Shown: positions 1 through 25,700 of the stretch, piece by piece
How positions within the stretch are numbered: position 1 is the first letter of the stretch
Layout of the letters: every line of letters starts with the position of its first letter
DNA from: Candidatus Omnitrophota bacterium
GTDB lineage: Bacteria > Omnitrophota > Gorgyraeia > Zapsychrales > Fredricksoniimonadaceae
Direction of reading: 5' to 3'
Length of the DNA stretch: 64,000 bases
Assembly (NCBI GenBank): GCA_037131245.1
Contig: JBAXRK010000001.1
Location: 24,385-88,384, forward strand
The notes under the pieces: generated by a model
What the model was told of the DNA's origin: nothing
The model's input: only the letters and a program-made list of their open reading frames with translations
Databases searched by the model: none
Translations under genes and position numbers: made by a program

Positions 1-1745
1 GGATTAAAATCACGGGACTTCTTGATAAGGGCGAGCTTGTACGCCGCGCGGTCATTATAAAGAGCAGACAGTTCACGGACCACCATCAGGAATTGCCGGC
101 CGGTCTCCTGACGGGCACGGATGGAAGCCGCGTCATTATCGATACCAAAACCATCCACGCCAAAAAGCGTGCCCAACTTCTGCAGGAAGTCGGACAGGCC
201 GCCACGACGCGCCACGATCACAAAAGCGTGCAGGAGCGCCTGCTGGACATTCGCCAGCCCGCAGGGCTCATCGATCGAGAGCATGATACCGCCCACGCTG
301 CCTGAAGGGATCTGATCGCCGAGGTCAGCGTCAAAAGCCTTGATGAAGCGGAAGTTCGCCTTGAACTCTTCGCGCCCGGCCAACTCCTCAAGCTTTGCTT
401 CAACCCATTCGCCCACGATATCCAGTGCCTTGCCGGTGGCTTTGTCGCGCGCCACGTTCCCCAGGATCACCAGCTGAACGCGGGCGCCTTTGCCATCCAG
501 GTCGAGGCGCAGGAGCTGCTCAATAAGCGTCTCCCCGGTCTCTTCAGTCATCACCGTGAACAGGACATTCAAACCTTTCTGTTTCACGATACGGGTCACA
601 ATACCGAGAGTCAGATGGTTCGGGTTGGTATCATCAAGGCCAAGCTTTTTCTGCAGGGCGCGTTTGTTATGTTCCTTGAACAAAGCGGGGTCTTTATCAT
701 CCTGCGTAAAACCGTCGCGGGCCAGCGCCGAACGGGCGGCCGGCACGTAATTAGCCACGCGCAGGCCGCTATACACCGCGGCCAGTTTTTGCTCGTAAGA
801 CCTCAGCACGCCATCGAGGCCATAACCGCGCTCTTTGGTGAGCACTTCGGCCATGTTGCCCTTGCTCACAAAAACAACAGTATCGGAGTAGATGAAAGCG
901 CCTTTCATAAAATCATGCCGGCCGGCGATAGCGCCATCAGGGAAGGACGACCAGAATTCCAGGCCATTATTCCCGGTGGCATACTGCAGCTCAGGACGTA
1001 AATGGGTCAGCTTGAACAACTCCACCACACCCTGCGTCTTGCTCGTGCTATAGAAATTATGGATCGGGTCCTGATAGCCGCGATGGCGCGCCAGGACACC
1101 CAGGCCCAGGAGATGACGGACCAGTTGGCTATTGAGCGCGACTTTCATCTCTCCGGGGAAAATCCCCTGATATTCGAGGTTATGCGTGGTAAAGATCGAC
1201 GCCGGACGAGCACTGCTGAAAGCGTAAAGTTCACGCAGGAACACCGCGCCCAGGCCGGTCTGCCAATCATTGAAATGGTAAAGGTCGATCTTAACGTTGA
1301 GCCAGAACTTGAGCTCCACCGCCAGCCGCGGCAGCAGGACCGCTTCGAGATAGCCGCCAAGGGAATCCGGATGCGGCGCGGTGTAAAGATTGTTAAAGAG
1401 GTTGCCCGTCACATCAAGCGGCAGCAGGAAGGAACAACCCTGCTGTTCGAGGTACACCACCTTAAGCGGATAGCTGGCGTTGCCTGCCGGGACGGGGATG
1501 GTCATCAGGTCCACCGCGCCGCTCTGGGCGAAGAAAGCCTCGACCGAGTGGAAGCTCTTGAGCACGTCCGCCAGGAACAAAGGCTTCACCACCATGACCG
1601 CGTTACCAACCTCGGCCATCACCGGCGGCACATCGCCCATATACACATGCTGGCCGCCACCCGCGGTGGATTCACGCTTGAGCTCGCGGCCGGTCGACGG
1701 GATGATCACCGGGGATTCCATCGCGGCAAAGACCAAGGACAATTT
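1..1745 (-). other. Domain: glycogen/starch synthase (GlgA-type, GT5 GT-B)-like, running to the left edge of the window
   Basis: AGGGQHVYMGDVPPVMAEVGNAVMVVKPLF; IDLYHFNDWQTGLGAVFLRE; SIFTTHNLEYQGIFP; KGAFIYSDTVVFVSKGNMAEV; NKRALQKKLGLDD..LGIVTRIVKQKGLNVL; QLVILGN; GGIMLSIDEPCGLANVQQALLHAFVIVARRGGLSD. These are collinear with the GlgA motifs TGGLadV / hDWqt / T.HNl.yQG / sptya.E / nK..Lq..lGL..RL..QKG / q.v.LG.G / PS.fEPCGL.Q..a..yG..P.v...GGL.D. Confidence 0.8.
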
Positions 1746-4700
1746 TCCGGCGGCTTTCGCGCGGTCGATACGTTCCACCATGGCGCGGCGCGCGTAATAG
1801 GTCTGCCCCATGCGCCACTCGGGGTAACGCTTCAGAAGCTTGTCAAGGTCGGCCAGGAGCGTGTCGTCATTAAAGATCGACGACCACAGCACCGCGTGAA
1901 TAGCGTCAGCGCGGTAGGGCTCAATGATATGGTTGAATTCGTCTTCAATGATCTTCTCGAGGATGCGCGCGGGCACATTATTTGCCCAGGCGCTTAACTG
2001 CAGGACCGGGAAAGTCTGCGAACGATCAATGAAAGCGATGGGGCCCGCGCGCGGATGGATCTTCACCGGCAGGCCATCGGCCAAAGCGCCATTAAGGTTG
2101 ACCTTCGCCCTGTCACCCAGGCGAGCGAGGACATTCTTGACCGCGCTGGATAGCATTTTCTCGGTGCGGGCCGCTTCGCCTTCAAAACTTTCCACGCGCA
2201 CGCGGCCGGCGGTCAATGAGACCAGCAACTCGCCGTTGATATTTTCCGGATAGGCCGGGACGGTGAGCGGGAAGGTTTCCGGAATACCCACCTGCCTTAA
2301 ATAAGCCAACCGCGCAACGATCCGCGCCATCTCCCTATCATAAGAATTCCGCAGATCAGGGTTTGCCACACGTTCTTTTTGTACGGTCAAAATATTCCCG
2401 ATACTTCCCACCGCTTCAGCATAGATTTCCACAGCTTGTGCGGAGCCCTGCCCCCACTGAGCAGTCAATTGACTTTCAGCAGCCTCCAGAAGAAGCCGCC
2501 GTCCGACCGTAAGTCCGACAAACGCAAGATCAGTCTCACTAAACAAAGCCGCCACTTCATCCATGTTCAAGTCAAAAATATCATCTGTGCGTGCAAAAGA
2601 CTCAGGGAACATCCGTGCTACCACACGCAAATGCTCGGCCGTCATTCTCTGCAAACGGACGATCCAATCATGCATATCATTACGGATAATGCTATTGACC
2701 TCCGCCAGCGCCATCACACGCTCCATGGTCGGATAAGCGTTAAGAACGCCTGTGACCGTCTCCCGCTGATCACGCCATTGACCCAGACGCTCCAAGATGC
2801 CCGCTACAACCTCTTCGGACGGAACACCTCTTGCGGCAGCTGCCAGATCGATCAATTTCACCAGAGTAAGATCGTTATCACGGACCCTGCGATAATAATC
2901 AGCCGGGGCAATCTTTTCAGGGAATGCAGCATAAAAACGGCGAATGTGATACCAGTTAAGGCCAACCAGCTCCTCTCGAACATTCGCTATTCGGGCAAGC
3001 CGGGCAACACTGTCAAAGAATTTAACAACATCAACTTCCCCCGAAACACGTAGATCCTCATGATCAGTTTTGTACTGAGACGATTCCATCATGACACGGG
3101 CCGCCAACTCGGGAGCCGCCTTTTGGAACGCAACCCAATCACCAGCCTTAAGAACCTCCAATGCGCCTTCAACTGAACCAGCCTCCAGAACCAGAAGCAA
3201 CATTGCCTTGCGCTTCTCATAACGCAAATTCCTCTGTTCTAAAGGATAGCGCCTCCAAAAAGCCATTTCCCGGACCAAAGCAGCATAGCTAATACCCGCG
3301 GCATCATTTTCCCGGCGCAAATAAGCGTCCTGCGGCATCAAATAACGCGCATTAAATACATCCTGGTAACGGAACACAGTCGTCGACCAGAACAACGAAC
3401 GCTCAAGGGTCCGCATCAGCGGCCCGAGATTGTCCCCGCTTGGAACTCCAAAATTCGAAATAAAAACCTCCAGCTCTTTAATAAACGCCATCCGCTGCTG
3501 GTTAAAGAACTCAAACCCCTCCAAAGTCAAACCATTGAAAAACCCTTCGAGGTTATCCATATCTTCGGCGCGAACGGAGAATATGCGGTCTTTGATCCTC
3601 TTAACGGCCGCAGCAGACACAACAGCAGCTCCGCTGAACGAACCCGAAGGCCAATCCAATGCTGAAGATATGGCCTCCGATAATTCAAATGCTCTCCAGT
3701 AATAATCCAGCTGAAGATACGAATACTGTTTACGGGGTTTTCCAAACCAAACGCCATCAACATCATGGATCGTGTTCGGGTGATCCGATGTAAGGCGCTG
3801 GGGAGCCAATGTAACAGCTGCGACCTCGCTCCATATCGACCGTTGTAACTGGACGCTCTCAACGGGTTGCTCTCCAAGATAAACAGTCTTACGGCGCGCA
3901 TCAAATGTAACGATCCGGCCATCCCATCGGGACAGTACGTCCATGGCGTTAACAACCCCGACCAATGATGGAATATTTAACCAGGGCTCACGCGAAGCAA
4001 TGGCCGTATGGCAATTCATATCTCCGGCATCTGTGATGACCCCGCCGGCCCGCGTCAACGCATCATTCCAACGGTTAGTCGTTGAATGGACAACAAGAAC
4101 AACCCCCTGCCTGACCTGAGCATATCCCTCCCCGTCACGGATGATCTGCAGTGGACCGGTCACAGCACCGGAATTCGCATTGATCCCGTTTTCGAACATA
4201 ACCGCATCAACAAATATTCCGTCCCTTAAGGCGACCGTCTTGACCTCAATGAACTCTCCCGGATTCGAGCAAGTCAACGGCCTGGCCTGAACGATCCAAA
4301 GACAGCCGGTATTCTTCTCGAGAACAAACTCAACATCCACATGCCGCCCATTATCTTTCGAAAGCGAACGATACGCGTCCCTGATCTCCCTGACTAAAAA
4401 GCCCAACGCCAGGACCTCCTCAGGCTTGAGGACCGCCTCCTGCCGAGGCTGCTTGAGCTGAACCGTCTCCGTAAGGCCGGCAGAAAGCATTTGCGTCATC
4501 ACGGTTTTGGTCGCGATCCGTTCCTCAAGAATGAATTTCGCGTCCGGGCTCACCAGCCAGGTATCTGTCTGAGAATCACCGCCGACGACTGATTCTCCGA
4601 GCCCCAGGCCAGCCGTGATCCGCAAAGCCGGGCGAGCCGTTCCGGTCCCATCCATCGAACAAACAACGCCCGCCGCTGCGGCATCCCCAACCATCGCCTG

Positions 4701-7700
4701 AAGGACAACCGCCATAGCTCCCGCTTCCAGCGGAAGGCCGTTACGCAAACGATAAAGAACAAAACTTGGATCAAAGAAACTGGCCCAAACACTCACCACA
4801 GCTTGCCGCATGGCTGCCTCAGTCGTCACATGGAGTACCGATAAAGCCTGGCCGGCGCAAGAAAACTTTTCCCCGTCTTCAAACGTAGCGGAACTGCGAA
4901 CGGCCACATCATGACCCAGCATCCGCAGTGCAGCGGACAACCGTTCACGGACGGCTGAAGAAATACCAGCTCCGGCCACCAAAGATCTCAGCTTATCGGA
5001 GATCCCCTGAACCTCATCTGCTATGTCCGCGGATCTGCGCGGATCTGCGGCGGAAAATTGCTTGCCCAGGGCCGTCAACCTTGCCCATAAGGAACCAGCC
5101 TCGGGCAACCCGATGATCAGATCTTCAAACGCCTTGGCGCTCAATATCAATGTCTCAGGGACACGGAGCTTCCCTTCAGCGCTACCCTGGGCAACCATTG
5201 AATGAAGAACGCCCATGTTCTTCCCCTTGCCCCCGGCAACCTTAACATCAGCAACCCTGGGATCCGTCAGACTAAACAAATAATCATCCCGGCCAAAAGC
5301 CAATCTGAAATCCACATCAGCGGCCGGCGTAACATCAGCGAATGGCTGGTCCTCCAATCGAACGCCCCAATCGTGATCCTGTTTGACCTTTTCCACAAAT
5401 TCATTGAAGATCCGATCCCCCTGGCAGGAATGATTCGCGCACAATGACGGGATCACTTTCTCCCGCACCGAGCGGCTGGCATCCCAGAAATCCTTGAACT
5501 GAGCATGCTTGTACAAGATCCCGAACCTGAAATCCTGGCGGTCCGACTGTTCAAACCCGGGGAAAGCGTTATAAATACAGGGCAGGCCCATACCGACCGG
5601 GTTGACGAAAAGCTTGCGTATGCTTGCCCAGCAACGAGGGCCATTGCATCCCGGGAACACAGAATTCCCCTTGGTAAAATCATCCCACCTGACAAAAATG
5701 AAGAAATTCGAACCGGCATACTTCTTCTCGAGACGACGCAGATTCTCCAGGGCCTGAGCTTCCTGCTCTTTGGTCAATTCATACTTAATATCGAAACTCT
5801 CGTGCTTTAACCGGCGCACCTTGAGCCTGTCCACCCCAAGGCCAATGGCAAATTCCACCAACCGGTCGAACTGGTCATAATTGCTCTGCAAGATCAGCGG
5901 AGCGAACGAAATACTCGCGAGACGCGTCCGCTTGGGGTCAAGCAACTCAACGGTATTCTTGCCGATCGACGCATTATCCTGAACTTCATACCCGCGCTTG
6001 ATCAACTCGGCCTTCCTCGCCGTCAGCAAACGGACATGCTCTACCACCTTATCGAAAGCCTCAACATTCACTCCAGTCAGGCCCTTACTGGCGATGTACT
6101 GATCTTTATTGCCGAAGTCGAGGCTGATCTGCAGATCGTCAACGTGGGTTAAAAGAAAATCAAGGAACCTCTCCTGCGAGCCCTGGAACCTTGCCAGCAA
6201 TCTGGGATTGTTCAACTTAAACCCGGTCGTCACGAACCTGGTATTGAACCCCGCGGCACGGGCCTCTTTGAGAATATCGATCGAGAACTCTTCTTCCGTC
6301 GGCTCCAGGCCACCGGAGACGATCGCCCATTCCGCCTTTGCCGCACGTAAATCACGGAGGTACCCCCTGATCTTCAACTGCATTTCCCTGCTCTCTCTCA
6401 TCTTTTTAACTTCAGCCAGCAGGCACTTGAACGGCGCCCCATAGTCCTGGTCAAAATATCTCCCGCCGTGTTTGGTAAGATTCGGACAATACTGGCACCG
6501 TAATGAACACGCCAGGGAAGGATGGAATTCAATTTCCATCGGGAAAGGATTCCCGCCGGTAATGGCCGCCTGCCAAAGCGCCCGCTGTTTATTGAGGATC
6601 ATCTTGTAATTATCGTAGTAATAGGTCGGAGTCTCGATCTCGAAAGCAGACTGCAGATACTGCGAATGCCGGATTAACCCGTAAAAGCGCACCAAACCAT
6701 CAAGCTGTAATCCCAGGGTTGCGGCGATCTTTTGGGAAGACATGGTCATGCGGCGCATTAAAAGCCGTATCAACTGGCTCAGGGAAGCAGCATCCTGATC
6801 ACTCAGATCAACGGCAAACTCCCTAAGAATGGCCTCTTTCAAAACACGTGTTTCCGCCTCGTAAAGATCCTCGTCTTTTAAGCCCCGACTGCCGGTATGC
6901 CGCAGGAAATCTCCCCAACCCGCTTTAGAACCCGCGGGCCTGAGCAAAGAGCCCCGGACGAACGGCTGGGCCGCCAGCGCGATACCAAAGGCCAGGTCGT
7001 CTTTAACTTTTTCAACCGCCTCATTCGAAGCACGCTCAAAAAGCATGCAGGCGCCGCACTTGGCAGGCAGAATGCCCTGCGATCGACGGGCCCGAACCTC
7101 CGGCTTATTCCAATATTCCGTGAACGAGGCGTATTCAAAAATAGACCGATCTGCGTTAAGAACATAATCCTGACCGCACATCCGCTCCTGCCCCGGATGA
7201 GCCGTATAACAGCACGCAATGCCCGCACCATACGGATTGATGATCGTTTTATATTCGTCGCGCCAGCAACGTCCGGCCCGGACCTGTTCTGTGGTCCGCG
7301 CGTCTTTCGCAAAATCTTCAAAATTGATCCGGACCTTGAACGCCTGATCCATTTCATACTCGCGCCGGATCTCCTCCAGAACAACCGCCACCTGGGGATA
7401 AAGCACGGGATGCGGCTTCACCAGACTGGCCATCTCGTGCCTGATGGCGATCGCATCGACTCCCATATCCTTGAACCTCGATACGATCTCTTTCAGATGC
7501 GCGGCATTCTCATCGATAACAAGGAGCGCGATCTCAATGTGCACCCCCACTCCGCCCGACCGCCTTCTTGACCGGACCAGGCCGGCAATATTCCCCAGGA
7601 CCCTGTCATAGGAAGGATCCCCGGCCGGCAAGCCCTTGCTGCGGTTATAGGCCTCTGCGTATTCGGCTCCGGCGAAATCAAGGCTGACCCTCAACTTCGT

Positions 7701-10700
7701 CACATGCTGCCGGTAGAAATCATACATTTCCTCAAGTGGCGCCTCAACGATCGGATGCCCGTTGCCTGGCGCAATGCCCCGGCCATCCAGATTGACGCCA
7801 TTCGTATTAAGAATGACCTCCAATCCATTCTCATAAGCAGCCTTAATGATCTCCGTTGAAAGGCTGCTGGCTAAGGGTTCTTTCCCACCGGAAATAAAGA
7901 CCCGCTTTGTTCCGCCGGCAGCAAGCTCATGGATAAAACTCTGGATTTTCCCGATCTTTTCTTCCTTAGTCGATCGCGGGACCTGGGTAAAATAATTGAT
8001 CCCCGCATACCCCTGGCCGCGGCTATAACAATACTCACAGTCAAGATTGCACCACAGGGCAGGATGGAACTCGACTTCAACCGGGTATTTCTTTTCACCA
8101 TTAATAACAGCCAGCCAGAACTCCCGGTCATCTGTGCAAACAGACCCCAGAATATCCGCATACCGCGCAAAAGGCGAACGGAGAACCAGCGCGTCCTGAA
8201 TAAGCGGATTGGCCTGCATGTAGCGATAAATGCTCTCCAATTCTACACGGCTTAAACCCAGCTGTTCGCAGATCGCCTGACTGCGCACAAATGGGTCATT
8301 AAAAAGCATCTCAAAAACAGGCATGATCATTTCTCTGCGGACATCCGCCGACGTCAATGCCTGGATCTGCTGCGCATGGCCGGCCTGGTCTTTCTTGAGG
8401 ACTTCTGTCAACATGCCGATGAGCCTGTCAAGATTGGAATTCTCTAGCAAATCCATCACAACCGTCAAATTCCGTATATTCTCGGTGATCAGATCACTTT
8501 CGTAATGCGCCAAACTTGCATAATCCGTCTTCAATATCGCCTTAAGCGAAAGCACCGCGTCCTTCAATTCCCTGACCGTCGCCGCTTTCTGATCCCCTGC
8601 GTAACCTGAAGCCTTTAAGCGGCGCAGGAGCGTTTCAACTTTAGCCGTCACGCTCCGAATATCGTCGACGCCCGTGCGCGCGTTGAAAAGAGATCGAAAT
8701 TGTTTGCTGTTCAAAGCCAACAACCCTTCCACAAACGCAACCACCTCATTTGGATCAACAGGTTCAGCTGCCGCATACTCCAACTCTTTCTTTAGCCCGA
8801 ATGACTTGACCTTCGGAATACGGACCGCCAGCCAATCATTGCCGTTCTCATCATGTGCCGCCTCGGAGGCTGACATCAGCTCTAAAAATCTCTGATGTGT
8901 CAGGATCTCTCCCATACCACCCGAAAGATTAAAGACGCTTCTGCCGATCGGGTGCCATAACATTGACTCGTAGCCAAGATTAAAGACAACCACCGCCTGT
9001 TTGCCAAGGCCGCTGAGCAAATGGGCCGTTCCCGTATCAAATACCACTCCCATGTCAACCGCACTCAACAGCGCAATATGGGACCCCAATGACATCTGGG
9101 GGATCACCAGGATCTCATTCGCCCCTTCCTCGCCTAATGACCGCTTGATGGACGCGACAGCGGCCCTCGTCTGTTCAATGTCATCAGCATTCTCGCCGCT
9201 GTTAACCAAAACATACGCGCTTCTCTTTGCTGCCAATAATGCCATGAACTTGATAGAATCCTGCTGCGACCAGTTCTTCGCCCCCTTGCGTGATCCGCAA
9301 TGCGGATCAAAATAGATCACGGGCTTAACAAACCGGCCTTCCGCCGGGTTATACGCGCAGCCCAGGTCCCTGATCGTCCTGATCGCCCACTCACGCTCTG
9401 CCTCGCTGACAGAGATCTTCGGTTCAACATCGGTCATCTGGACGCCAAGGCCGCGAATGCTGCTCACCGTGATCTTCCAGGCGTTAAGCCTCTGCTCACC
9501 ATGATTATTAAACACATACTTGCCGTCCGCATTGCCATCCTGGTTCCTGTAGTCATAAAAAGACCCGATAGGCTCATAAGGATTCAACTCATACAACGGC
9601 GGCCGGAAACGATAATAAAGATAATACCCTTTTGATCCGCTCTGTTGATCCCGAAGCTTACGCGACAATTCTTCCTCATTCTCAATATCGATCACCAGAT
9701 CATACGGCCCGTTCGTATCAGCCGCGGGATCGATGCCGCCGGCCTTATACAGGTCCGGGTAATTGGAGAAAACCCTGATCTGCGCTTGCGGGAACATTGT
9801 TTTCAGATGGGCGAACATGCCGAAATACATATTCACCCCCATCCGGGTCGCCGTTCCATTCTTCTTGACGATCAAAATGTGACGGACACTGTCCTTATCC
9901 TGAATATGCGCCAAAGGCTCGTAGCAAACCTGGTTCCTGATCGCCTCACCAGCCAGCGGTACCATTTGACTGTGCCAGGTCGACCTGAAAAACCGGCCTC
10001 TGTACGGCATATGCGCGGGGAATTTTTTCCGGGCGACGACCATCAGTTGCAATTTCTCAAGAGCCAGCGTCCTCACACCAGGATCCTGATCATTCCTCCA
10101 TATGAAATCCAGCGTTTCCAGCACCTGCTCCTCATCGTTGCCCAAATAGTCGCCTATATGTTCGACAATGGAACGGCGCTTTGCCCTATCGACCCTGTGC
10201 AACAAGCTCAGCAGATATTCAAATCTACGGCCCTTATCGCTGAATACAGTGATCACCTGGTCGTAAAGCTCATGCACCGCCGGCGCGACATCGTCGGCAT
10301 GATAACCTCTGGCCAAGTCCTTTAATTCATGGGTCGTCAGGCCCTTGAGATCTGTCTCCCTATCGCGGTTCACGGCCAGCTCAACGGCGTGATAACCCAC
10401 ATAGATCGAAGCCAAAGGATATCCGGACTTAAGCCCCAGGCCTGAATGAGCTAGTACATTGGAATGACGGTTGTTGAAGACAATGGTCGGTGACTGATCA
10501 TTTTCCACGACAATGCTAAGGCGCAGGGACTTGCCTGAAGGAAGGGGCATCTCACGGGCAGCTTCGGCCATTGCCTCAAATCCGCTGACGAGGTTCCGCT
10601 TGAACACAAGATCGCTCAGCCGCCCGATCATCATCTCGCGCACCGCGGGAGGCGCTCTGACATCAACAAGATTCCTCAGGAAGACATCAGCCATGCCTTC

Positions 10701-13700: not shown

Positions 13701-16700
13701 ATCGTTACGGCGCAACGGCGGCGCATTCGCGTCAGGCAATTTCTTCAGGGCTTCCTGGACAAACAGCTCTCCAGCTCCGAACGCGATCGCTTCTTTGTAC
13801 TCCTTGATCTGCTGCTTGATCGCGTCCACTGTCAGGGCGTTCATCCCGACCGCGGCTACGAGCTTTTCAGGCATGGCCAGCACACCGGCCACCTTGTTCT
13901 GGAAAATGCCGCCCGCCGGAATGATCACCAGTGAAGGATTGGCTTTGCGCAGCTCAGCGATCGAGCTGCCCTCGGCCTTCAGCGCTTCGGAAACCTTGCC
14001 CCAATGCTTGAGGACAACGCCGTCAACACCCGCCTGGACAGCCGAATTAATGGCTGTCAGGAATGTCGGCTGGGCGGCGGTGTCGATCTCGGCGATCATA
14101 ACCAGCGCGGGCAGTTCTTTACGCAACGCCAGCATCTCAGCCTGGGACGGAACAAAGTCGACTATGATCACAAAGCTCGCGCCTGCCGCGGCCGCGGCGC
14201 GGATATCCGCAAGACTGGCCGCGAAAAAGCCAACCGGCGCCGCGGCATTCTTCGCCCGAAGCGCCTTAAGCACATCCAGGCGGTCAACTGTCGGAATAAA
14301 TCCGGCAACAACCACCTCGTTCATCAAACTAATAATAAGCTCAGGCGACTGGCCAAAGTGGTTCTGCTTCTCTTTAAGTGTATGGCTGCCGACTTCGACG
14401 CGCTTGGCGTTAAACTCCGCCACAATGGCTTGTTTCTGTCCGACAATCTGCTGCGGCGTAACAACCCTGAACGCCACCGCATCAGCCGGAACAGGATCAA
14501 CATCAAAATGAATACTGGCAAAACGGATAGTGATATTGGCGGGATCGATCAGAATGGAGCTGCCGTTGGCACGCACTGCCTGCACAACCAATCGGCCTGA
14601 CCGCAGCGCGATACCGATCATTTCTTTAACAGTTTCCTGCGCAAAAACCGGCACACCGAACGAAGAGACCTCAAGGTCGGCCATGCCGGCAGGCCTGAAC
14701 GTTACCGCAGGAGGCGCCAAAGCTCGCGGCAAACGACTAAGGATACTCTCTCCCAACCGCTCCTCAGCGCTGGAAGCGGCAACAGCTTTCTTGTAAAAAT
14801 ATTCTTTGGCTTTCTCCGTAAGATTGCCGTTCACATCCTCAAGGGCCACAACAAAAGCCGGATCAAGCACATTCCATACTGCAGCGATAAGAATATCCCT
14901 GTTATTCGATGCCCGGGCGGCGCGAAGCTTTTCGCCAAAACTGTTGATGGTATTCTTTAAGACGGCTGACTTCGCGTTGTTAATGGCTTGCTGTTGCGCA
15001 TTCTTGTGCTTGATCTCAATAAAATCTAACAAAGCAACAGCCGCTTTGTCATCCTGGTTATCTTTTGAGTCAGAGATCGCCTGCAGCCAACCATGATGCT
15101 CAGCAACCATCCCGACCCTCAGCTGGCGGCCCGCGGCCGCTTTCATCGCCGCTTTTGCCGCGTCATTGGCTGCCGATAAGACCTGAACACGAACACTACG
15201 CAGCAAATTCAGTTTAGCCGGGACACTTATGATCGCCTGATAAGCATTAGCCTCTTTTGCGATGATCACATTTCTAGCCGTATCCGCGTTCGCTTTGGCC
15301 ACCGCGTCATACACCGCGACAGCTGTTTTCTCGTCGTTATTCTCACTCACATCCGACATCGCCTGCAACCAACCATGATGCTCGGCAATCAACCCGGCCC
15401 TCAACTGACGGCCCGCAGCCGCCTTGATCGCCGTCTTGGCCGCATCATTCGCCGCCAGAGCCACCTGAACACGAGCCTCGCGAATAATATTAACCTTCAC
15501 GACATCAGCAACGATCACAGCAATGGCATCCTTAGCGCCCTTATCAGCAACAACCTTCGCCGCATCAGCGTTCGCCTTGGCCACCGCTTCATACACCGCG
15601 ACTGCCACCTTCTCATCGTTATTCTCATTGACATCCGACATCGCCTGCAGCCAACCATGACGCTCGGCAACCAACCCGGCCCTCAACTGACGACCCGCAG
15701 CTACCTTGATCGCCATCTTCGCCGCATCATTCGCCGCCAGAGCCACCTGAACACGGGCCTCGCGAACGGCATTAACCTTCACAATATCCGCCACGATCAC
15801 AGCAATGGCATCTTTAGCGCCCTTATCAGCAATAACCTTCGCCGCATCAACGTTCGCCTTGGCCACCACTTCATACAGCGCGACAGCCGTCTTCTCGTCA
15901 TTATTCTCATTCACATCCGACATCGCCTGCAGCCACGCATGATGCTCAACAGCCATCCCGGCCCTCAACTGACGACCCGTGGCCACCTTGATCATCGTCT
16001 TGGCCGCATCATTCGCCGCCAGAGCCACCTGAACACGAGCCTCGCGAATAATATTAACCTTCACGACATCAGCAACGATCACAGCAATGGCATCCTTAGC
16101 GCCCTTATCAGCAACAACCTTCGCCGCATCAGCGTTCGCCTTGGCCACCGCTTCATACACCGCGACTGCCACCTTCTCATCGTTATTCTCATTGACATCC
16201 GACATCGCCTGCAGCCAACCATGACGCTCGGCAACCAACCCGGCCCTCAACTGACGACCCGCAGCTACCTTGATCGCCATCTTCGCCGCATCATTCGCCG
16301 CCAGAGCCACCTGAACACGGGCCTCGCGAACGGCATTAACCTTCACAATATCCGCCACGATCACAGCAATGGCATCTTTAGCGCCCTTATCAGCAATAAC
16401 CTTCGCCGCATCAACGTTCGCCTTGGCCACCACTTCATACAGCGCGACAGCCGTCTTCTCGTCATTATTCTCATTCACATCCGACATCGCCTGCAGCCAC
16501 GCATGATGCTCAACAGCCATCCCGGCCCTCAACTGACGACCCGTGGCCACCTTGATCATCGTCTTGGCCGCATCATTCGCCGCCAGCGCTACCTGAACAC
16601 GGGCAGCACGCACCGTATTGACGTTAACAACATCGCTCAGGATCACGGCCATGGCTGCTTTAGTATTACGCGCGCTTACTTCGCTGGCCTTCACCTCAAC

Positions 16701-19700
16701 ATGAGCCTTGACCGCATCAAGCAGACTGGCCACCGTCGAAACAACCTTCGGCATCTTGCGGCCATTCATAGTGATCATGGAACGACGATACGCAGAGATC
16801 GTATCAGCGCCGATCTTCTCTATAATGTCCCTCTTGATGCTGATCACGGAAACCGCCGGTAAAGCCTGCTGCGCGGCACGCAATGAACGGTACTCATTAA
16901 CGATCCTGTCAGCTGTCTGCGCAACAACTGAATCTAGCGTCTTGCGGGCATCAAGCTCCATAGCCCTGACCGCAGCATCCGCATCCATGGGCGCCACAAC
17001 AAGATCATGACCGGCCGGATCAACCGCCGCTCCGCCTTTCATCCACTCAACAAACGCAACCGCCTTGCCCCACAAACTAACAACCTTATAAACACTCCAC
17101 AACGCGACCGGCACTAACCAGACCAGATTAATGATCTTGAAAACAGTCATCGCCATGCCGCTAAGGCCCAGGATAAACGCGCTAACTGTCAAGGCATAGG
17201 TAACCAGGAAAGCGCCGAGCCCGACAACCAAAGCAATCTTGAACCCGGTCGTCCTCATAAACTTCGGGAGCAAATACGGATCACCCGTGAACTTTGCCCC
17301 CTCAACGCCTTTGGCGGGAATAAACTTGTAAACACCGTTATACAGATACTGCCGGTCTGAATGATGCAAGGACGCGTTCATATTACCCTGGTATCTCTTG
17401 AGCAGACCCTGAGTCCGGATAAGCTGCTGGATCTGATCCTGAACATTCACATCAAGAACATCTCCTTTTTCCTGAAGATCCTTGAGTTTTGTCGCAACCA
17501 CTTTAGCTAGTTTCCCGATATCATCCTTCACCATTAATTCATTGTTATCCAGAACCAATCCACCCATAAGGCCCTGCTCGGCGATATACTGCTGCAAGGC
17601 AAGGCGGAAATATTCCGTATCATTAATATCACCGACCTTCTTCTTAAGATCAGCCAGCAGAAGCTCATAGCTGTTCTTCTCTTCCGTCGGCTCCCACACA
17701 AAATATTCTTGGCTGTCACCGATCAAGAGCTTAATGGCTCGGTCGATCTTCCGGTACTCGCTCATGATCCGGCGGCTCTTGATCAGCTTCGTTCCGGCAA
17801 CAAACACCACGGCGGAAGCGGCCAGCAGAACGGAGACGACCGGGTAGAACCACAAGGCAACGACCGCTGTCAAAGTCAGAATAAGCTTGGCCACATTGGC
17901 CTTCTTATCGTTGCTCTTGAGCTCGTAATACCAATCCTTCGCCCCTCTCCACCAGGCATAAAGTGAATACAAGAGGACATCGACGATCTTAAGCCCCGCC
18001 GTTGCCACTTTGTTCCACGGCAACTTGCTATATTTATTATTCTCGTAGAATTTGCTGCCATACAAAACCCCGGGATTATAAACAGCCGGCCCGGCGATCC
18101 AGCTCACAACCTGGATGATATAAAAGCCAGCTGCCAGAAGAATGATCGGCTCCATAGGAATAAAGTACAGAATAAGCGGAAGCAAGGGAGCCGCCAATTT
18201 CACACCGAACCGGTCGGTCGGCACAACGCCCGGTTCTTCATAAAGCACTTTGTATGTGCGAGTGGCCTGCCACCCGGAACGGTCGGTCGGCGGGAATTTC
18301 GGCGTGCCGTGCAGCAATTCATCAAATATGGCTTTCACATAGTTCGGGATCAAGGACCCCATGAAGACGACCAGGCCAGGCTTCACGAACATGCGACGCA
18401 AAAGTTCAAGCAGACCGTAGGGTGAACCGTACAACTGGTTATAGTAATGGACCGCAGGAATGGTAATGGCATGCATAAAGAGGTAGCCGAAAGCAACCAT
18501 GATCGGTGCTAGCGGCAGTCCGTACCAGGAATCAACGTGAAAAACCATTAATGCGATAAAAAGAATGCTGGCAACCAAGCCGGGAAGTTTGCGCAGGAAG
18601 AAATGCGACAGGCCCAGGGTACCCAGTTTGATATGAACAGGACCGGGTGTCATCAAAGCGCGCTGCGCTTCCTTATCCATGAAGATCTCACCCACGTCGC
18701 CGCAATACTTATACTCAGGGACCTTGTGAGCCCCACGCATCCTGGTCTTATCCTGGATCATCTCGACAAATGAGCTATAGCGGATCTCGCCGCCTTCTGC
18801 CAGGATGCCTTCGCCCATGACCGAATCTTCCGCGGCGCGGCACAGCGGGCCGACACCGCCACGGCCAGAGCTAAAGTCACTTGAGTCGTAAAGTGCCGCC
18901 ATTTTGGCATTATGCGCCTCAGCCAGGCTCGCCACGGAATGACCGAAGAACACATCCAGGTCCATGGAATACTTGCCGTATGTCGTTAACGATCCAAGGA
19001 CATCGGTACCCATCTGAGCCGGATGCGTCCAGGTCGATTCCGCGTGGCCGCCGGCGCCGCTGGTAGGCGTCATCGTCTGAACGGTAGAGTACAGCGGGAA
19101 TAACTGTGCGGCTAAACTAGGATTTTGATCATACAAGGCAGTCACAAACGGCAAGAAATAGATCTCTTCGAACGGTATCTGGTTGGAAACGTCCTGGGCG
19201 ATCATATGGCGCGCCCCGATCATCATGGAGCCAAGCTCCATCCAGGCCGCGTCCTTGACCGGCATCAGAAAAGCACGGCCAGACGGATCAAGCAGGCGAA
19301 TATTCGGCACGCCCAAATCAGCATAAAGTTTAACCAGATCAGTATGCTTACCAGCGTCCGCACAGCCAAACGCCCCGGCCGGGATCACATTAAAAATGAA
19401 TTTGTCTGCCGCAAAACGAGCATAGGCCTCATCCACCTCTTGAATATATTTCTTCTCGTGGCTGCCTTCTGTGTATCCGCCTTCAGGTTCATTATTTTTA
19501 TACTGTTCATAGAGCGGATCTGGCAGGTAGTCCCGGGCGAACATTTGCATAACCTTCAGGTGACGCTTATTTTTTATAGCTAATCGCGTGATAGTATCAT
19601 CACGCGAAGTTATAAAACCAATCAGGTTCTTCTGTAAGTTATCTGTGCGGTCATAAGGTTTAAAGAATGTTGTAAAAAGCACATCGACCTGGCCTTTGGG

Positions 19701-22700
19701 CGCTTCCCAGAATATTTTAGCCTCGCCCTGAATGGAGGCAACCTTCAACTGGACCTCCTCTAAAGAATTGAAGGGCTTACCATTATTTTCCATCGCTGCC
19801 TTAACCCCTGTGAAGATCTTGTCAGCGTACGTCGCTACCGTTGCCGCAAGCGCGCCGGTCCGGAATTCAGGCATCGCGGCGGCCTCCCTAATGCGTTCCG
19901 CCAAGAGGCGCTTAATATCATCATCTGTCAATGTCTTTTGAGAGATCAGGGCGTAAGTATATTTAACATAAGCAGGGAACCGGCTCCCCAGAACATAATT
20001 GATCACGAATGGCAAAACGACCCGGACTAACTTCATAAAAGGCGGGAGATCTTTTATGCGATCCAGCTTACACTTTTCAACGAGGAAATTTTCCAATTCT
20101 TCGCGGGATGTCGCATTGTTAACCACATTGGGCAGGCACTCAACAACATCCTTCCATAGTCTTTCAAACGCCATGCCGGCCATAGTAGCCCAATACATGG
20201 TCCGCGGAATATCGGTGAAATGCTCATACGGGGTCAACCGGCCATCGGCTGTTTCAGGAATATCGCGATGATAAAACTTGTTCATGGCCTGCTTCAGACG
20301 ATGCATAGCCTCATGATTGATGCCCTCAAGGTCCTGAAGCGTAATGCCCTTCAAGGACTTCAGCTTGTTGTACTGCGCCTCGGAGATCGACTTGTAATCA
20401 TCCCTGGTCATGTCCTCAAGGAACTGCTCATAATACCTACGGGCCGCGCCCTTGTCGCCACCGGTAAAGTTAAACGAGAAATTGCGGACATGGCTTGTGT
20501 AAAGAACAGCGATGCGCAGGAGCCTGTAGATCGCATCCACGATCCACGGTGAAGCAAAGACCGCGCCTGTGATCCAGACGCCGGTAGCGATCGAGGCAAA
20601 ACCGCCGGATACCATCGTCACCGCTATAACTGTCAAGCCAAGGGCTATTGAAGTCCAGAAAACATATTTTCTACCTGAATTCAACGCGGCAACGAACATG
20701 CTGGCGAAGATCAAGACGACAACACCGTGGAGATGAAAAGAGGCTCCGAACAAGAGCGCCATTCCAACGCCAAACACGAACGCCGCGGCAGCTATCACTA
20801 ATTTTCCGGCTAAATGCCGCACGTATTGCCCCATACCGCCCATTTTCTGTTCGCCCAGCATCTTAAGCGACACATACAGATCCTCGATCGTACGGATCTG
20901 GTGTGTATTGATATCCAACGCCTTATCCTTCGCCACCCGATGCAATTGCAGATAGAATCCGGAAGAAGCGAAAAGAGCGCTGATCAGGATCGCCATGAAC
21001 AGCACGGGGATCGCAATAAGCCCTATAGAAACAGATCCGGTCGCCCCCAGCATGACCAACAGCTTCGGCAAAGACCAGAACATGGCCATCCAGGTCAGGA
21101 AACTGCCGACCCAAACTATATTGCGTAAAACCTTAGCCCAACTCTTTAAAGCGTTATTCATGTGCTCGATCGTCTTCTCATCGATGCCCAGAGAACGATT
21201 ACGGTCCTCAAGATAATTGGGCTTGGTTGCCAGATTCCAGACGAACTTCAGCACGCTGACATCTTCCGGAATGCTCCAAACTCGGCGGTCAAAGAACAAA
21301 GCAAAATAATTCCGGTACGCGCGGGTCAACTTGAGGTAATAGCTGGCCGGCTCGATCTTCTGCTCTTTCTGTTCAAGCTTGATCTGCGGAAGGATCTTGC
21401 TATCAACGAGCTCCTGAGTAAAAGCCACACGGAAAAGATGCATTTTATCATCTGAGAACATCGGCAATTTCATTGGTTTCGAGGCAGGCCATGCTGTTAA
21501 TTGCTCCATCCAAGCGTCGGCTCCTCCGATGGGCTGTAAACGGCGGTCCAATAATTGCAACCTTTCCTGCACATTGGCTAACCGCTGGTAGAACTCAGCA
21601 TCGGAAGGATCCCCCACGAAATCCAGTTCCGCCATCGCGGCCACCCGAACCTCCTCAATGCATTGCCTGGCCTTTATAAAATCATCGTGTTTCAAACGAA
21701 TATCTGTCTGATCCATCATCCTCAAGCTGATACGGTCGATCGTCGTATTGAGGATCATGCGAACATCAGGCACGGTCAGGCCCATGCCACGACGCAGATC
21801 GATCCCGCGCTTATACAGGCGGTCGAAATCGTCCGGCGTGAACTGGGGGCGGTTATTCGACCTCTTGGTCTTGATACCGCCACCGGTGTAACCCCAAACT
21901 GTATCTGATAAGATAGCGCCCCAGACCTGGTCCAGAGCAATGGCAACATCCCAGGCCTCAGCAACAACCCCTCTCTGTTTGCCCCGCATAACACTTCTGA
22001 CAAGCCTGGCCACAAAAGTCGGCCGGTTCACAAATACCCGCTGTTCAACCATCCGGCGAACAACATACTCTTCCAGAGAAATATACACCAGGCCGTCCTT
22101 GATCTTCTTGTGCTTGATCAAAACACCGGCATTCGGATCAGCAAATGTATCGCCGGCTTTCTGGTGCCTTAATTCCTGAATGCGTACACGGACATCATCA
22201 AGAATAGCCTCGCGCCTAGTCTGAACCTCATTGCGATGCATCGAGCGGGCGCCGATGATCTCCCCTAACGTGTTCGCCAGGTCAATATATTCAATCTTGT
22301 CAGAAGCTACGATCGACTTCAAAACTTCGCGGAATTTAGCGGAACTGATCGGACCGACACCTTGTTGATTGGCTTCGATCAGTTTGAGGATAATATTGAT
22401 CACTATACCCTTCAAAGCGGATGGTTCCGTTGAAGACTTCGGCTTGATCATGTTTAACAGGTAATCGGTTCCCGTAATAGGCATCACCAATGAAAGCCTT
22501 AAGGCGTCGATCTTCTTGAAATCCTCCGGCTCCAGAAGCTTTTGAACCTCCTTCAACCGTTCATCCACCATCTGCTTGGTAAAGAACTGATAATTATCAA
22601 AGATCGTGTTCAGCTCTGAAGCCGCAGCCCGCTCAATAGCCTTGATCATAAGGTCATGAGCAATAAAACCCTTGTTGTAAACCAGCTTGTTGTTCAGCCC

Positions 22701-25700
22701 GTCGCGAATACCGCCCACCAGTTCCTTAAGAACATTGAGAGTAAACCCGGGATATTCTTTGAACAGCATCGCCAATGTCCCGGACAGATCCTCGGGCATA
22801 CCCTTCGTGGCCTGCACGGCTTCCTCAGGAGTACGAGCATTTTCAATATTCGACAGAATGTTCAAGACTTCCTGCTTAAACAGCGCGGCATTCGCAGCAG
22901 GCGCCTCTTTAACGGGTGCGATCTTCTTCAGCAGGCCCACGCCGAAGAATCTTTTCATGGACTTCAGGCTGAACCAGCGCTTCGGATTAATGAACCCTAA
23001 GAAACCCAGAAGCGTAAGCGCTATCGTACCGATAACGGTAATCTCAATAACATCCTTCCTGTAATCCTTGATCGTTTTCAATTCCGGAAGGGCACGTCGA
23101 GCAACGGCTTTCTGCTCCTCAGTCAACGCCGCCCTCTGACTATTGCCAATGCCTGCTTCGCGAACAATATTGGCAACAATACTGTTTCTAAGGTCATCAC
23201 TGAGCAACACACTCTTAGGCATATACCAAGGCAGAAGATCCGCGCCCATTGTCTTGCCGATGAACCGTGAACCCTGAACATGAGCAAGGCGGCCATTGAT
23301 ATAGAGGCGATGCGGCACGCCGGCCCAATTCTCGTACCGCTGAGCCAGTTTCCCTGCTACGCCATCTTCATAATTTATTTCAAACACATAATACTGCCCG
23401 GGAGTCTCTGTCGGCTGCTGAATGTAATACGCCGATGGCCGAGCATCATTTACCAGCACGCCCTGCTTAAGGTTCTCTAGGCCCTTATGGCTAATGAACA
23501 TCCCGAAATAAGGCTCCTGCGACGGCGTCAAATAAACTTGTTTGTAATCCGTCACAGAGAAAGGATTCATCGCCTTTAACGCGTCTCTATAATCAAATGA
23601 GAAACTGGTGTGCTCATAGACGCGGTACGCCGAACCACCCCATGGATAATTTCCCTCATAGAGCGGATTCTCAGCCATCATCGGAATATTAAGGGTCATT
23701 GGCTGTAGATGCGTCAGCAATAACCCGTTCGCATCCTGACCGATGAACTCACTCTTCATGTTCGGGCCTTCCGCTGCCGCCACGTAGTTCGACAGGACAT
23801 CCTGGCCCTTTACATAATCAAAGATATACGAACCATTGCTCAGGTCCAGCGCCCCTAGGATCTTCTCCTCGGTCGTCATCAAACCCTGCTTTTCATCAGG
23901 GTAAACGCGCGAAACGAACAGGCGCGGATCGCCCGACGGAATGCCATTCGTACCCACCTTATCCTGCCACGAGAACGCCTTCTTCTGACGGCCTTGCGTG
24001 GAATCCACTTCCTTCTTCACTTCAAAGATCTTATTGCCGAAATTAACGCCCTTATTGCTCACCAGGGTGTTAAGCACGTCGTACAATCCCTGCAGGTCAC
24101 CCGACTTGGCTTTAATGTCATTGGCATGGCCGCGGATGATCCAGGAGGGTATCTCGCGGCTATCCATGATCTGTTTGATCTGGGCGGCAACATCTCGCGA
24201 CTCCATCCCGCGGATGCGCTCGCCGTATCCAAAAACCTGCCAATCGCCGTTGGTCGATGTCATATAAGCGATGGACGAATGGCTGGCAATACCCTGGCCC
24301 TTGAGCTCATCAAGATAATGATTGGCTTTCACCACGTCGCCAACGCGCTGAACAAAAACCCCATTCTCCAGGCGCCCGAAAGCCTGAGCGATCACATTGC
24401 CCTTTAGGTCCTTGACCTCGCGCACCGCGAATTCGACCATACGGCCGCGATACGGGAAGCTGACCTCGCGGTCGATCGTGATCCGCCCGTTATGGTAGAG
24501 CCGGCCGATATCCACCAGGGTCATCGGATAGGTGATCGTTGAACCATCAGCGTAGCGCAAATGGCTGGTCATGATCTTCAACAAACGGTTGCCGTTATCG
24601 TCAAGGACCCAAAGCTCTGAGCCATCCGCCAGGTCAAGCATTTTAGGCAGGTCATTATAAAAATTGACCACTTCAAGAGAGCGATGACGGTCGACGGAAG
24701 AAAGCACTCTTTGGGACTTATCCTTGATCTCAGTGGTATTCACACCCGTGAAATGATCAGCCTTGTCCGCCTTGTTACGGACATCCCCCGCCAGGCGGTA
24801 CACCTGGGCCAGCACCACATCGGCGGCGTTCGTGTTCGCCGGGCCAAACGCGGTACGCAGCGCATCAGCGTAAGCCTTATAATCAAAATTGGTGGTCGCG
24901 CTCGAAACAGGCGCCTTCAAGGCCTTCTCTATATCCCTCACCATCGCCTCGACATCCACCACGGCCGGCTGGCGGGCGACCACAGCATTGATCGCGGCGA
25001 GCGTATCCTGCGGCACATCCAAGAGCGTCAGGCCTTTGGTCACAGAGCTGGAGAGAACAACATTCGTGTTATCCGCCATGGTCGTGGTCACATGCGTGGG
25101 CACCAGCGGGCCAAAGCCGTTATAATCAAACGTAACCGCGCGATCATTCTCCGCCTGATCCGTCGCCCTCTCGCCGATAAAGGGCAGGATGACACGTGAT
25201 TCTTTCACCGTCGCGCCGCTGAAAATATTGCTGAACGTGATCGTGTACCCCGACAGCTCGCGCTTGAAACCATTCATCCGGTAGGTCGGCTCCAGCGGCA
25301 GGTCGGAAGACATCACCAGCGTTTGTGCCGCCGCGTTCCCGATAAATTGATGTTGGCTCAGGTCAACCAGATATTTCTGGGCGCTAATGTTCGTATTCCC
25401 GATGATCTGCTGGTCGATGGTGCTAAACCACGCTACGCCGTTGGTCCTGGTCGACGGCAGAATGCTCAGCCAACTATTCGCCTTGCCTTCCGCGCCCAGG
25501 AGCACAATATCGGTGGCCTTGGCCGGCAGGTTCTTATAATTCACCTCAAAAGCCGCCAGCGTGGTCCAATGCGGGCGCAACTTGTACATATCCGGATAAA
25601 CCACCATGCGATGCGTCGCCTGCCACTGCGCCAGGTCCGCGACCGCGGCGGGATCGGTGAATTTGAACATCCCCTCACCCGTAGCCGCATTCGGCCAACC

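Follow-up and report, generated by a model that had tools for sequence, protein, structure and literature searches.

Within 64,000 nucleotides (nt) of contig JBAXRK010000001.1 from a Candidatus Omnitrophota bacterium (the whole of this stretch is called the window, and its first letter is position 1), the minus strand is occupied by one giant open reading frame (ORF) that includes two radical S-adenosylmethionine (SAM) modules lying in tandem. In the explanation that we favour, to which we assign a probability of roughly 0.6, these are paralogous enzymes with the domain layout of DesII, the TDP-4-amino-4,6-dideoxy-D-glucose ammonia-lyase, each with a predicted auxiliary cluster, that carry out radical chemistry on sugars. 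We are highly confident of what this explanation says about structure and family, and consider it an even bet or slightly better that the substrate is a sugar or a sugar nucleotide. By architecture and ancestry the modules are DesII-like without being orthologues of DesII, from which a twitch-type auxiliary-cluster site sets them apart.

A tandem pair of paralogous radical SAM units

The frame contains the cluster motif CX3CX2C exactly twice, as CNLDCEYC (8028-8051, on the minus strand, as are all window features below) in the first unit and CSLRCQYC (6486-6509) in the second, against 0.0005 motifs expected by chance from the cysteine content of the ORF (61 Cys in the whole frame, 0.29%). The motifs are 514 amino acids (aa), or 1,542 nt, apart, in agreement with the original prediction, made from the letters alone, of two modules about 1.54 kb apart. 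The longer FHP(A/S)L.C.L.C.YC signature and the GG.EP motif that it described are likewise found in both copies, the latter as SGG(K/L)EP, and an aromatic residue precedes the third Cys of the triad in both modules. Twenty of the 61 Cys are concentrated in a 1,085-aa stretch around the two motifs. Outside the pair, the giant protein is depleted in Cys, at 0.2% (41 Cys in 20,247 aa).

The modules had also been proposed to be paralogous, and BLASTP bears this out, with 28% identity between unit 1 and unit 2 across 441 aligned aa (E 1e-42). The similar helical leader noted in front of each module proved to be homologous as well: leader 1 aligns over ~140 aa with its counterparts in unit 2, P0001 and P0002, the last two being close relatives described below. 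Because these ~140 residues before each motif are also homologous, the repeated unit amounts to ~510 aa (leader, core and Cys tail) and not the ~380 aa first given for a module, the leader being a domain of the unit. The interval originally drawn (5400-8090) was exact in its frame and slightly short in its extent, which is ~5340-8498; it left out leader 1 and stopped ~20 aa before the end of module 2. Both leaders contain a stretch resembling a helix-turn-helix (HTH), SQAICEQLGLSRVELESIYRY in unit 1 and SQKIAATLGLQLDGLVRFYGL in unit 2. Directly before strand beta1, each also has a conserved (D/K)(R/Q)xxW helix.

Unit 1 opens with a six-helix leader (8103-8498, with confident helices at 8103-8336), which was aligned to the N-terminal domain of DesII. 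Its radical SAM core (7299-8084) carries the CNLDCEYC triad, SGGKEP (7875-7892) and six beta/alpha repeats, and is followed by a C-terminal twitch-like domain (6954-7268) that contains CWRDEYKTIINPYGAGIAC (CX12GX4C, 7212-7268) and CGAC (7047-7058) and ends at a conserved QPF. In unit 2, the helical leader occupies 6546-6908, and phmmer aligns its last helix together with beta1 to DesII residues 105-159. The core of this unit (5649-6545) has SGGLEP at 6300-6317 and an insertion of ~25 aa past helix alpha4 relative to unit 1, and its twitch-like domain (5340-5648) comprises CWASIRKLFVNPVGMGLPC (5577-5633), CANHSC (CX4C, 5424-5441) and the QPF (5340-5348).

A match to the Radical_SAM profile was one of the checks suggested with the original prediction, and the prediction passes it. 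With PF04055 (gathering cut-off, 29.5 bits), module 1 reaches 44.7 bits (E 2e-11) and is thus over the cut-off, and module 2 on its own reaches 24.6 bits (E 3e-5), under it. Module 2 is linked to the radical SAM superfamily through its BLASTP alignment with module 1 and through all of the family-invariant residues; its score against a four-sequence family profile is 575 bits, module 2 itself being among those four sequences. Both modules retain the triad with its aromatic residue, S-G-G-x-E-P, T-x-G, the Ser of the ribose motif, the N and D residues, CX12GX4C and P-G.

At the DNA level, blastn returns one match between the units, 60 nt long and 73% identical, at the cluster motif, and since the likeness is limited to these 60 nt, the duplication is old. 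A recent tandem duplication is ruled out by the same result together with the distance between the modules, which equals the distance within the family: the two are ~30% identical, and other family members are about equally far. A neighbour-joining tree places both modules in a single 14-member clade with stand-alone proteins, and we cannot decide from these sequences between an ancient duplication in situ and two separate fusions.

Predicted structure and the auxiliary-cluster site

Leader 1 and module 1 were modelled together with AlphaFold2 (AF2) from a 65-sequence alignment, giving a predicted local distance difference test (pLDDT) score of 85.7 and a predicted template modelling (pTM) score of 0.84; this model supersedes an earlier one from 4 sequences (pLDDT 67). 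The leader forms six helices over residues 75-152 and has no strands. Strand beta1 spans residues 161-164, and C170, C174 and C177 fall in the beta1-alpha1 loop after it, which is where the cluster loop of a radical SAM TIM barrel had been expected to hold the triad. S223-G-G-K-E227 follows beta2, the Ser of the ribose motif (S292) ends beta4, and the model shows six beta/alpha repeats. For unit 2, the placement of the motifs on the barrel is predicted by alignment.

Beyond the barrel of unit 1, a hairpin (437-447) lies between C431 and C449, and C501 and C504 precede the last helix. The CX12GX4C present in both modules is the SPASM/twitch signature CX9-15GX4C, and the tail of the family follows the pattern C-X17-C...C-X2-C, whose four Cys are kept in 90-97% of 109 copies (first pair, 96-97%). 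The full seven-Cys SPASM motif (CX2CX5CX3C plus a distal Cys) is absent from both modules and from the family across the same 109 copies; as the CX2CX5CX3C block is missing, the tail is twitch-like, with one predicted auxiliary cluster, and not a full SPASM domain. The SPASM profile PF13186 (cut-off 21.5 bits) gives 14.5 and 12.7 bits with the modules taken singly and 22.0 bits with the pair scanned together, and is over threshold in the relatives P0006 (25.3 bits) and P0007 (22.7 bits).

Of the Cys-rich, auxiliary-cluster-like tail that had been described for each module, the Cys-bearing character and the auxiliary-type pattern hold, and the richness does not, the conserved Cys being four in number and of twitch type. 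With CX12GX4C straddling a beta-hairpin and a CX2-4C pair beyond it, the suggestion of an auxiliary 4Fe-4S site is retained. The sequences, and for unit 1 the model, support a predicted twitch-type four-Cys site for a second [4Fe-4S] cluster in each module.

DesII is the nearest characterised enzyme

By profile and by modelled fold, the characterised enzyme nearest to the modules is DesII, by far. DesII (8hzv/8hzy) is already the best sequence match in the PDB of each module alone, weakly so (E 0.1 and 0.035), and these matches take in the last leader helix. With the 65-sequence family profile, DesII is matched at E 1.1e-40 (142.6 bits) over residues 54-439, a span covering its N-terminal helical domain, radical SAM core and C-terminal hairpin. 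The next enzymes are PqqE (2.5e-19), SkfB (2.6e-18), MoaA (1.4e-17) and SuiB (2.5e-17), and weaker matches are found to BlsE (1.4e-13), BtrN (1e-7) and RlmN (3.5e-5). When the AF2 model of unit 1 was compared with the PDB using Foldseek, DesII again ranked first (E ~1e-17; TM-score 0.66-0.71 normalised to DesII, over ~510-520 columns that take in its whole chain) and SuiB second (E 2e-10). According to the original prediction the chemistry could not be told from the motifs; this is so for motifs alone, and the profile and fold comparisons narrow it towards DesII, a sugar-nucleotide enzyme.

A large family with small stand-alone members

With the four-sequence profile, HMMER run exhaustively against 1.84 billion cluster representatives gave 3,331 matches at E<=1e-3, 428 at <=1e-10 and 35 at <=1e-30, and the 109 full-length copies are those extracted from the matches listed. 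The CX3CX2C triad is invariant in all 109, and a family-specific signature includes a P-x-E-x-E-x-H beta1 strand before the cluster loop. Sixty-three copies reside in proteins shorter than 600 aa, mostly of 410-510 aa with a 60-120-aa N-terminal extension, and 34 form part of proteins of 1,000 aa or more; the longest match has 7,840 aa. The stand-alone relatives pass no curated NCBIfam model, and several have DesII as their best match, at 80-91 bits versus a cut-off of 450. These homologues of 410-510 aa would be far easier to express and assay than the giant protein.

A word-indexed protein search with the double module found P0001 and P0002 only, and one with the four-sequence alignment found P0002 only. 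P0001 is a partial protein from the Candidatus Omnitrophota metagenome-assembled genome (MAG) GCA_015233165.1, and P0002 comes from a Logan contig; of the three close homologues, two (P0001 and P0009) are from that one MAG and P0002 is the third. A scan of genome contigs matched solely the contig of this Omnitrophota MAG already identified, and a scan of metagenomes yielded distant relatives at 20-35% identity. Among the embedded members, P0006 (6,428 aa, GCA_021735325.1) has CX3CX2C three times, in one case apparently together with a B12-binding domain, so giant proteins can join different classes of radical SAM module in one polypeptide.

Several relatives are surrounded by carbohydrate enzymes, which points to sugar chemistry. 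The stand-alone P0016 lies among genes for a GT8 glycosyltransferase, a Wzx-type flippase (Polysacc_synt), Gtf3_C, GT4 and PMT_2, and genes for a polysaccharide pyruvyl transferase and a GT1 glycosyltransferase come after the stand-alone P0018. The embedded copies in P0006 and P0035 are followed by PGM_PMM and by a GFO/IDH/MocA oxidoreductase, respectively. Just downstream of the radical SAM module in P0011 and P0133, the stretches AGLGTR and LMGGASSRM recall the glycine-rich loops of sugar nucleotidyltransferases (UDPGP/RmlA-like); these glycine-rich segments have no Pfam match at E<=1e-3.

The host reading frame

The modules are borne by a minus-strand frame (codon starts at plus-strand positions ≡ 2 mod 3) that has no stop in the 21,332 codons of the window, while the five other frames have 274-1,580 stops apiece. 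Being stop-free and exiting both ends of the window, the frame (1-64000) is an internal piece of a giant gene of at least 21,332 codons. In a table-11 ORF listing the longest entry near the modules has 495 aa, because ORFs that run off the window ends are left out of it. Stop-codon recoding was considered and dismissed, the frame staying open from end to end. The plus-strand GC skew is negative in all 2-kb bins (cumulative, -3.6), and the coding strand is therefore G-rich throughout the 64 kb.

Pfam domains along the frame characterise it as a fragment of a giant multi-enzyme protein: Peptidase_M23 (63606-63878, 51.8 bits), near the N-terminal end of the fragment, then HEAT_2 (35154-35348), GT9, the two Radical_SAM domains, PPDK_N, PEP-utilizers and GT5. 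Some 10,000 aa, encoded at 15000-29999 and 45000-59999, have no Pfam match at E<=1e-3. Most probably the host belongs to the Archaeovorin-type (multi-enzyme metabolic) giant proteins of Omnitrophota, as membrane-like segments, GT5, HEAT_2, PPDK_N, Radical_SAM and a peptidase, the domain set of that type, are found in this ORF of at least 21,332 aa. From the sequence, the attribution to Omnitrophota follows the nearest homologues and this architecture, the window having no marker gene. A divergent SecA_DEAD domain is present in most full-length Archaeovorin-type or multi-enzyme giant proteins. SecA_DEAD gave no Pfam match in the window at E<=1e-3, and since the ORF is incomplete at both ends, this domain may sit beyond it.

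A Kyte-Doolittle scan, which is a crude predictor of membrane segments, gave 49 hydrophobic peaks (19-aa mean >=1.6), clustered and reaching as far as aa ~15,640; beyond that residue, below window position ~17,076, no convincing membrane-like segment was seen among the 19-mers. The clusters include 48951-49385, 20571-21071 and 17076-18596, have means of up to 2.7 and resemble bundles of transmembrane helices. Peptidase_M23 domains are usually extracytoplasmic. The radical SAM pair, at aa 18,500-19,553, falls inside a run of over 5,600 aa in which no membrane-like segments occur, and all of its neighbours are enzymes of cytoplasmic type, which supports a cytoplasmic placement as judged from the sequence. 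If the M23 domain is extracytoplasmic, an odd number of membrane passes would separate it from the cytoplasmic radical SAM and glycosyltransferase region. Published work on giant genes describes transmembrane predictions on such proteins as unreliable. That the modules constrain topology, as the original prediction held, is reasonable on this evidence, and their placement would fix the topology of ~5,700 residues of the giant protein. The sensitivity of four predicted Fe-S clusters to O2 would fit an anaerobic lifestyle of the host.

Neighbouring modules and conserved order

Upstream of the pair is a GT9-like (heptosyltransferase-like) module (8979-9449; PF01075 30 bits, E 4e-7; TIGR02193 22.6 bits). 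Downstream lies the N-terminal half of a module resembling phosphoenolpyruvate (PEP) synthase, PpsA (3843-5282; PF01326 175 bits, PF00391 48 bits; NF005057 232.6 bits), in which the PPDK_N and PEP-utilizers matches span 3894-5243. From the GT9-like module through both radical SAM modules into the PpsA-like module, the frame is continuous and stop-free. The NF005057 match covers profile positions 6-473 of 798, comprising the ATP-grasp PPDK_N and the swivel phospho-His domain, and the module has no PEP-binding C-terminal domain. Its layout resembles phosphotransferases such as rifampicin phosphotransferase and glucan-water dikinase more than a true PEP synthase. It begins within ~30 aa of the end of radical SAM module 2 and is followed by ~750 aa without assigned function (about 1641-3842), kept in P0009, P0156 and P0157, and then by a GlgA-like glycogen/starch synthase (GT5 and a C-terminal half, 162-1640; PF08323 87 bits, TIGR02095 140 bits), the GT5 match itself spanning 801-1640.

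The layouts of P0001 and P0009 indicate that the order GT9-like, radical SAM 1, radical SAM 2, PpsA-like is common to two lineages (36-51% identity). P0001 (contig JADFYF010000130.1), open from the start of its contig, consists of a GT9-like module that matches the window (phmmer E 1e-79) and likewise precedes the radical SAM region, then a helical region, radical SAM module 1, leader 2 and the start of module 2; a frame break follows on the contig, after which module 2 resumes. The module 1 orthologue in P0001 is 48% identical to that of the window. P0009, from the same MAG, supplies the C-terminal half of a module 2 orthologue (51% identity to module 2 and 28% to module 1), followed by PPDK_N and PEP-utilizers. 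All motif residues are kept in the lineages sharing this order, save the last auxiliary Cys of module 2; P0009 retains the first three. Between its module 2 orthologue and the PpsA-like part, P0009 has an extra segment of ~130 aa (residues ~200-330; FKDCPLCYQN...VVHKEHKEG) that is not in the window and may, from its sequence, be a HIT/GalT-like nucleotidyl-transferase motif.

Homologues also occur as separate ORFs, on Logan contig L002 (36% GC; 24-4516). There, a GT9-like ORF of 485 aa with a signal-peptide-like start, MMRFRKVFTLFLILTLSWSEAAFC, aligns by eye (unscored) with the GT9-like part of P0001; radical SAM module 1 is a gene of its own (672-705 aa), followed by an 85-aa ORF that aligns to leader 2 only and by a ComEC-like membrane protein. 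L002 may represent a split operon of ancestor-like form, or else a giant gene of which a decayed piece is left.

Proposed function and alternative explanations

We propose that each module would reductively cleave SAM by means of the [4Fe-4S] cluster bound at CX3CX2C, and would carry two [4Fe-4S] clusters in all. The resulting 5'-deoxyadenosyl radical would abstract H from a carbinol carbon, either in a sugar nucleotide or in a growing glycan, and the alpha-hydroxyalkyl radical so formed could go on to a keto, deoxy or epimerised sugar, with oxidation the favoured outcome. In twitch-type enzymes the auxiliary cluster serves as an electron sink or relay, and by analogy it may do so here. The products would feed the flanking glycosyltransferase modules at the cytoplasmic face of the membrane. 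As the two modules are only ~30% identical, they most likely use different substrates or catalyse successive steps.

Several observations weigh against radical sugar chemistry by DesII-like modules with an auxiliary cluster. No substrate is known for any member of the family. No NCBIfam model passed: the matches, which include DesII, viperin and a tungsten-cofactor maturase, are all far below threshold, and the DesII model TIGR04426 itself gives 31.5 bits with module 1 and 21.4 with module 2 versus a cut-off of 450. After DesII, the next structural neighbours (SuiB, SkfB, PqqE and anSME) modify peptides or proteins. Two of the four stand-alone contexts are not sugar clusters: P0003 (E 1e-67) adjoins a second, 356-aa radical SAM/SPASM gene and a Fic protein, and P0028 occurs with a methyltransferase and two further radical SAM genes. 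The P0003 loci (L003, 6919-9518; L004, 1897-4496) carry archaeal-type genes (LSM, ribosomal protein S8e), and as P0003 directly follows the other radical SAM/SPASM gene, paired radical SAM genes also exist outside giant proteins. The auxiliary-cluster site was judged from sequence motifs and the secondary structure of the model, and the last auxiliary Cys pair of module 2 is CX4C in the window, CX10C in P0009 and CX2C in the family consensus. Wide conservation of the GT9-like and PpsA-like flanks was considered and rejected, phmmer finding both beside a radical SAM module in one MAG only and not in the other large relatives.

Some of these points would also suit peptide- or protein-modifying maturases of the twitch/SPASM kind, which would introduce crosslinks or epimerisations into a separate peptide or the giant protein itself, with the leader as a substrate-recognition domain resembling the recognition element (RRE) of enzymes acting on ribosomally synthesised and post-translationally modified peptides (RiPPs). 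The nearest structures after DesII, with CteB among them, the many RiPP maturases in the sub-threshold NCBIfam matches, the radical SAM neighbours of P0003 and P0028, and the HTH-like stretch in the leader all favour such a role. DesII, however, is ahead of every peptide maturase by ~20 orders of magnitude by profile and 7 by fold, the seven-Cys SPASM motif is not complete in either module, and carbohydrate enzymes neighbour the modules in the ORF and in several relatives. An RRE is an N-terminal winged helix with a three-stranded beta-sheet, whereas the leader is modelled as six helices without a sheet and was aligned to the DesII N-domain, and on these grounds an RRE identity is rejected; overall, we regard maturases as unlikely. 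Somewhat less likely still is that one or both modules are catalytically dead and act as structural spacers in a fast-evolving giant protein. This would account for the score of module 2 under the Pfam gathering threshold, for the fourth auxiliary Cys of module 2 that moves between orthologues, and for L002, which retains module 1 alone with a leader 2 remnant; domains of giant proteins are moreover reported to be highly divergent. Yet every family-invariant residue is kept in both modules, and orthologues at 48-51% identity in another lineage retain the same residues, which argues for purifying selection on the active site.

That the modules are radical SAM methyltransferases is very improbable. 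The idea follows the label 'SAM-dependent methyltransferase/methylase' that a 2023 giant-gene preprint gives to Radical_SAM, and P0006 does bear a separate B12-binding and Radical_SAM module; against it, neither window module has a Pfam B12-binding or other methylase-associated domain, RlmN is matched by the family profile at E 3.5e-5 versus 1e-40 for DesII, and no methyltransferase is among the closest folds in Foldseek. We give even less credence to the 64-kb frame being an artefact of assembly or design that joins what are really separate genes. The separate GT9-like, radical SAM and 85-aa remnant ORFs of L002 would fit such a view, as would the frame break within module 2 in L001, but an artefact would have to account for zero stops in 21,332 codons versus hundreds in each other frame, for real domains throughout, and for an uninterrupted run from the GT9-like module through both radical SAM modules into the PpsA-like module; giant genes of this type are also documented from closed genomes.

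Radical sugar chemistry by DesII-like modules remains the explanation we prefer. Extending it further, a carbohydrate assembly line might be built into this single polypeptide, with the modules as its in-line radical tailoring stations, a proposal that we consider unlikely. A sugar nucleotide or glycan would then be handed between the GT9-like module, the two radical SAM modules, PpsA-like phosphotransfer and the GlgA-like module, all tethered at the cytoplasmic face of the membrane, and the radical SAM modules would be comparable to the tailoring domains of polyketide synthase and nonribosomal peptide synthetase megasynthases. If true, this would be the first radical SAM chemistry inside a polysaccharide megasynthase, and would define an uncharacterised subfamily of DesII-like enzymes in which an auxiliary cluster serves a new kind of sugar transformation.

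Comparison with known systems

BtrN uses its one auxiliary [4Fe-4S] cluster for carbinol oxidation. Together with BlsE and MoaA, twitch enzymes that also act on sugar or nucleotide substrates, it has a truncated SPASM domain with CX9-15GX4C around a hairpin, as in the modules; these enzymes are far more distant from the modules than DesII is, and are without the six-helix N-domain. The model of a twitch radical SAM subfamily, NF033640, gives 23.8 bits versus a cut-off of 170. In SuiB, SkfB, PqqE and anSME, the radical SAM core is followed by a C-terminal Fe-S domain opening with CX9-15GX4C, again as in the modules. Unlike these SPASM maturases, the modules have no seven-Cys motif, have a leader modelled as all-helical and stand in a context of carbohydrate enzymes; as the seven-Cys motif is missing, they would be without a second auxiliary cluster.

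DesII has a three-domain architecture of a six-helix N-domain, a radical SAM core and a beta-hairpin plus helices, with a single cluster, and abstracts H from the carbinol carbon of a nucleotide sugar (PMC11434129). With the modules it shares the three domains, CX3CX2C, GGE and the ribose and beta6 motifs, at 16-18% identity. DesII Thr388 and Tyr406 align where the module family has auxiliary Cys, in keeping with its single cluster, and its proposed base E408 aligns with a Tyr in both modules. DesII E408A/Q is still active, so this replacement is weak evidence on the chemistry; D456, which is essential in DesII, lies outside the aligned region, and no ternary complex of DesII exists. The module family, unlike DesII, has its own P-x-E-x-E-x-H strand and here occurs in two copies built into a giant protein. 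A literature search for characterised DesII-like enzymes with an auxiliary cluster turned up nothing relevant.

Few objects in microbial genomes are as poorly understood as giant genes, which run to tens of thousands of codons, and the presence of radical SAM domains in those of Omnitrophota is already known from two preprints. In West-Roberts et al. (bioRxiv 10.1101/2023.11.21.568195), Radical_SAM, glossed as 'SAM-dependent methyltransferase', and PPDK_N rank in the top 20 domains by frequency in the giant proteins of Omnitrophota. A 2026 preprint (bioRxiv 10.64898/2026.06.07.730766) reports PF04055 in 90 Omnitrophota long proteins and assigns it to a 'sugar metabolism' module of co-occurring domains to which starch synthase, GT1 and PGM/PMM also belong, which again points to sugar chemistry. 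The available parts of both list the domain as a Pfam match only, with no mention found of SPASM, twitch or an auxiliary cluster. As described there, the Archaeovorins, or 'multi-enzyme metabolic' class, resemble the host ORF in being giant, with many membrane-like segments, HEAT_2, GT5, PPDK_N, a peptidase and Radical_SAM. What is new here is the DesII-like, twitch-type identity of the radical SAM modules, their occurrence as a conserved tandem pair, and their membership of a large family, as yet uncharacterised, that includes small stand-alone proteins. Collectively, these provide a concrete and testable hypothesis for part of such a giant protein, namely that it may carry out radical tailoring of sugars on the cytoplasmic side.

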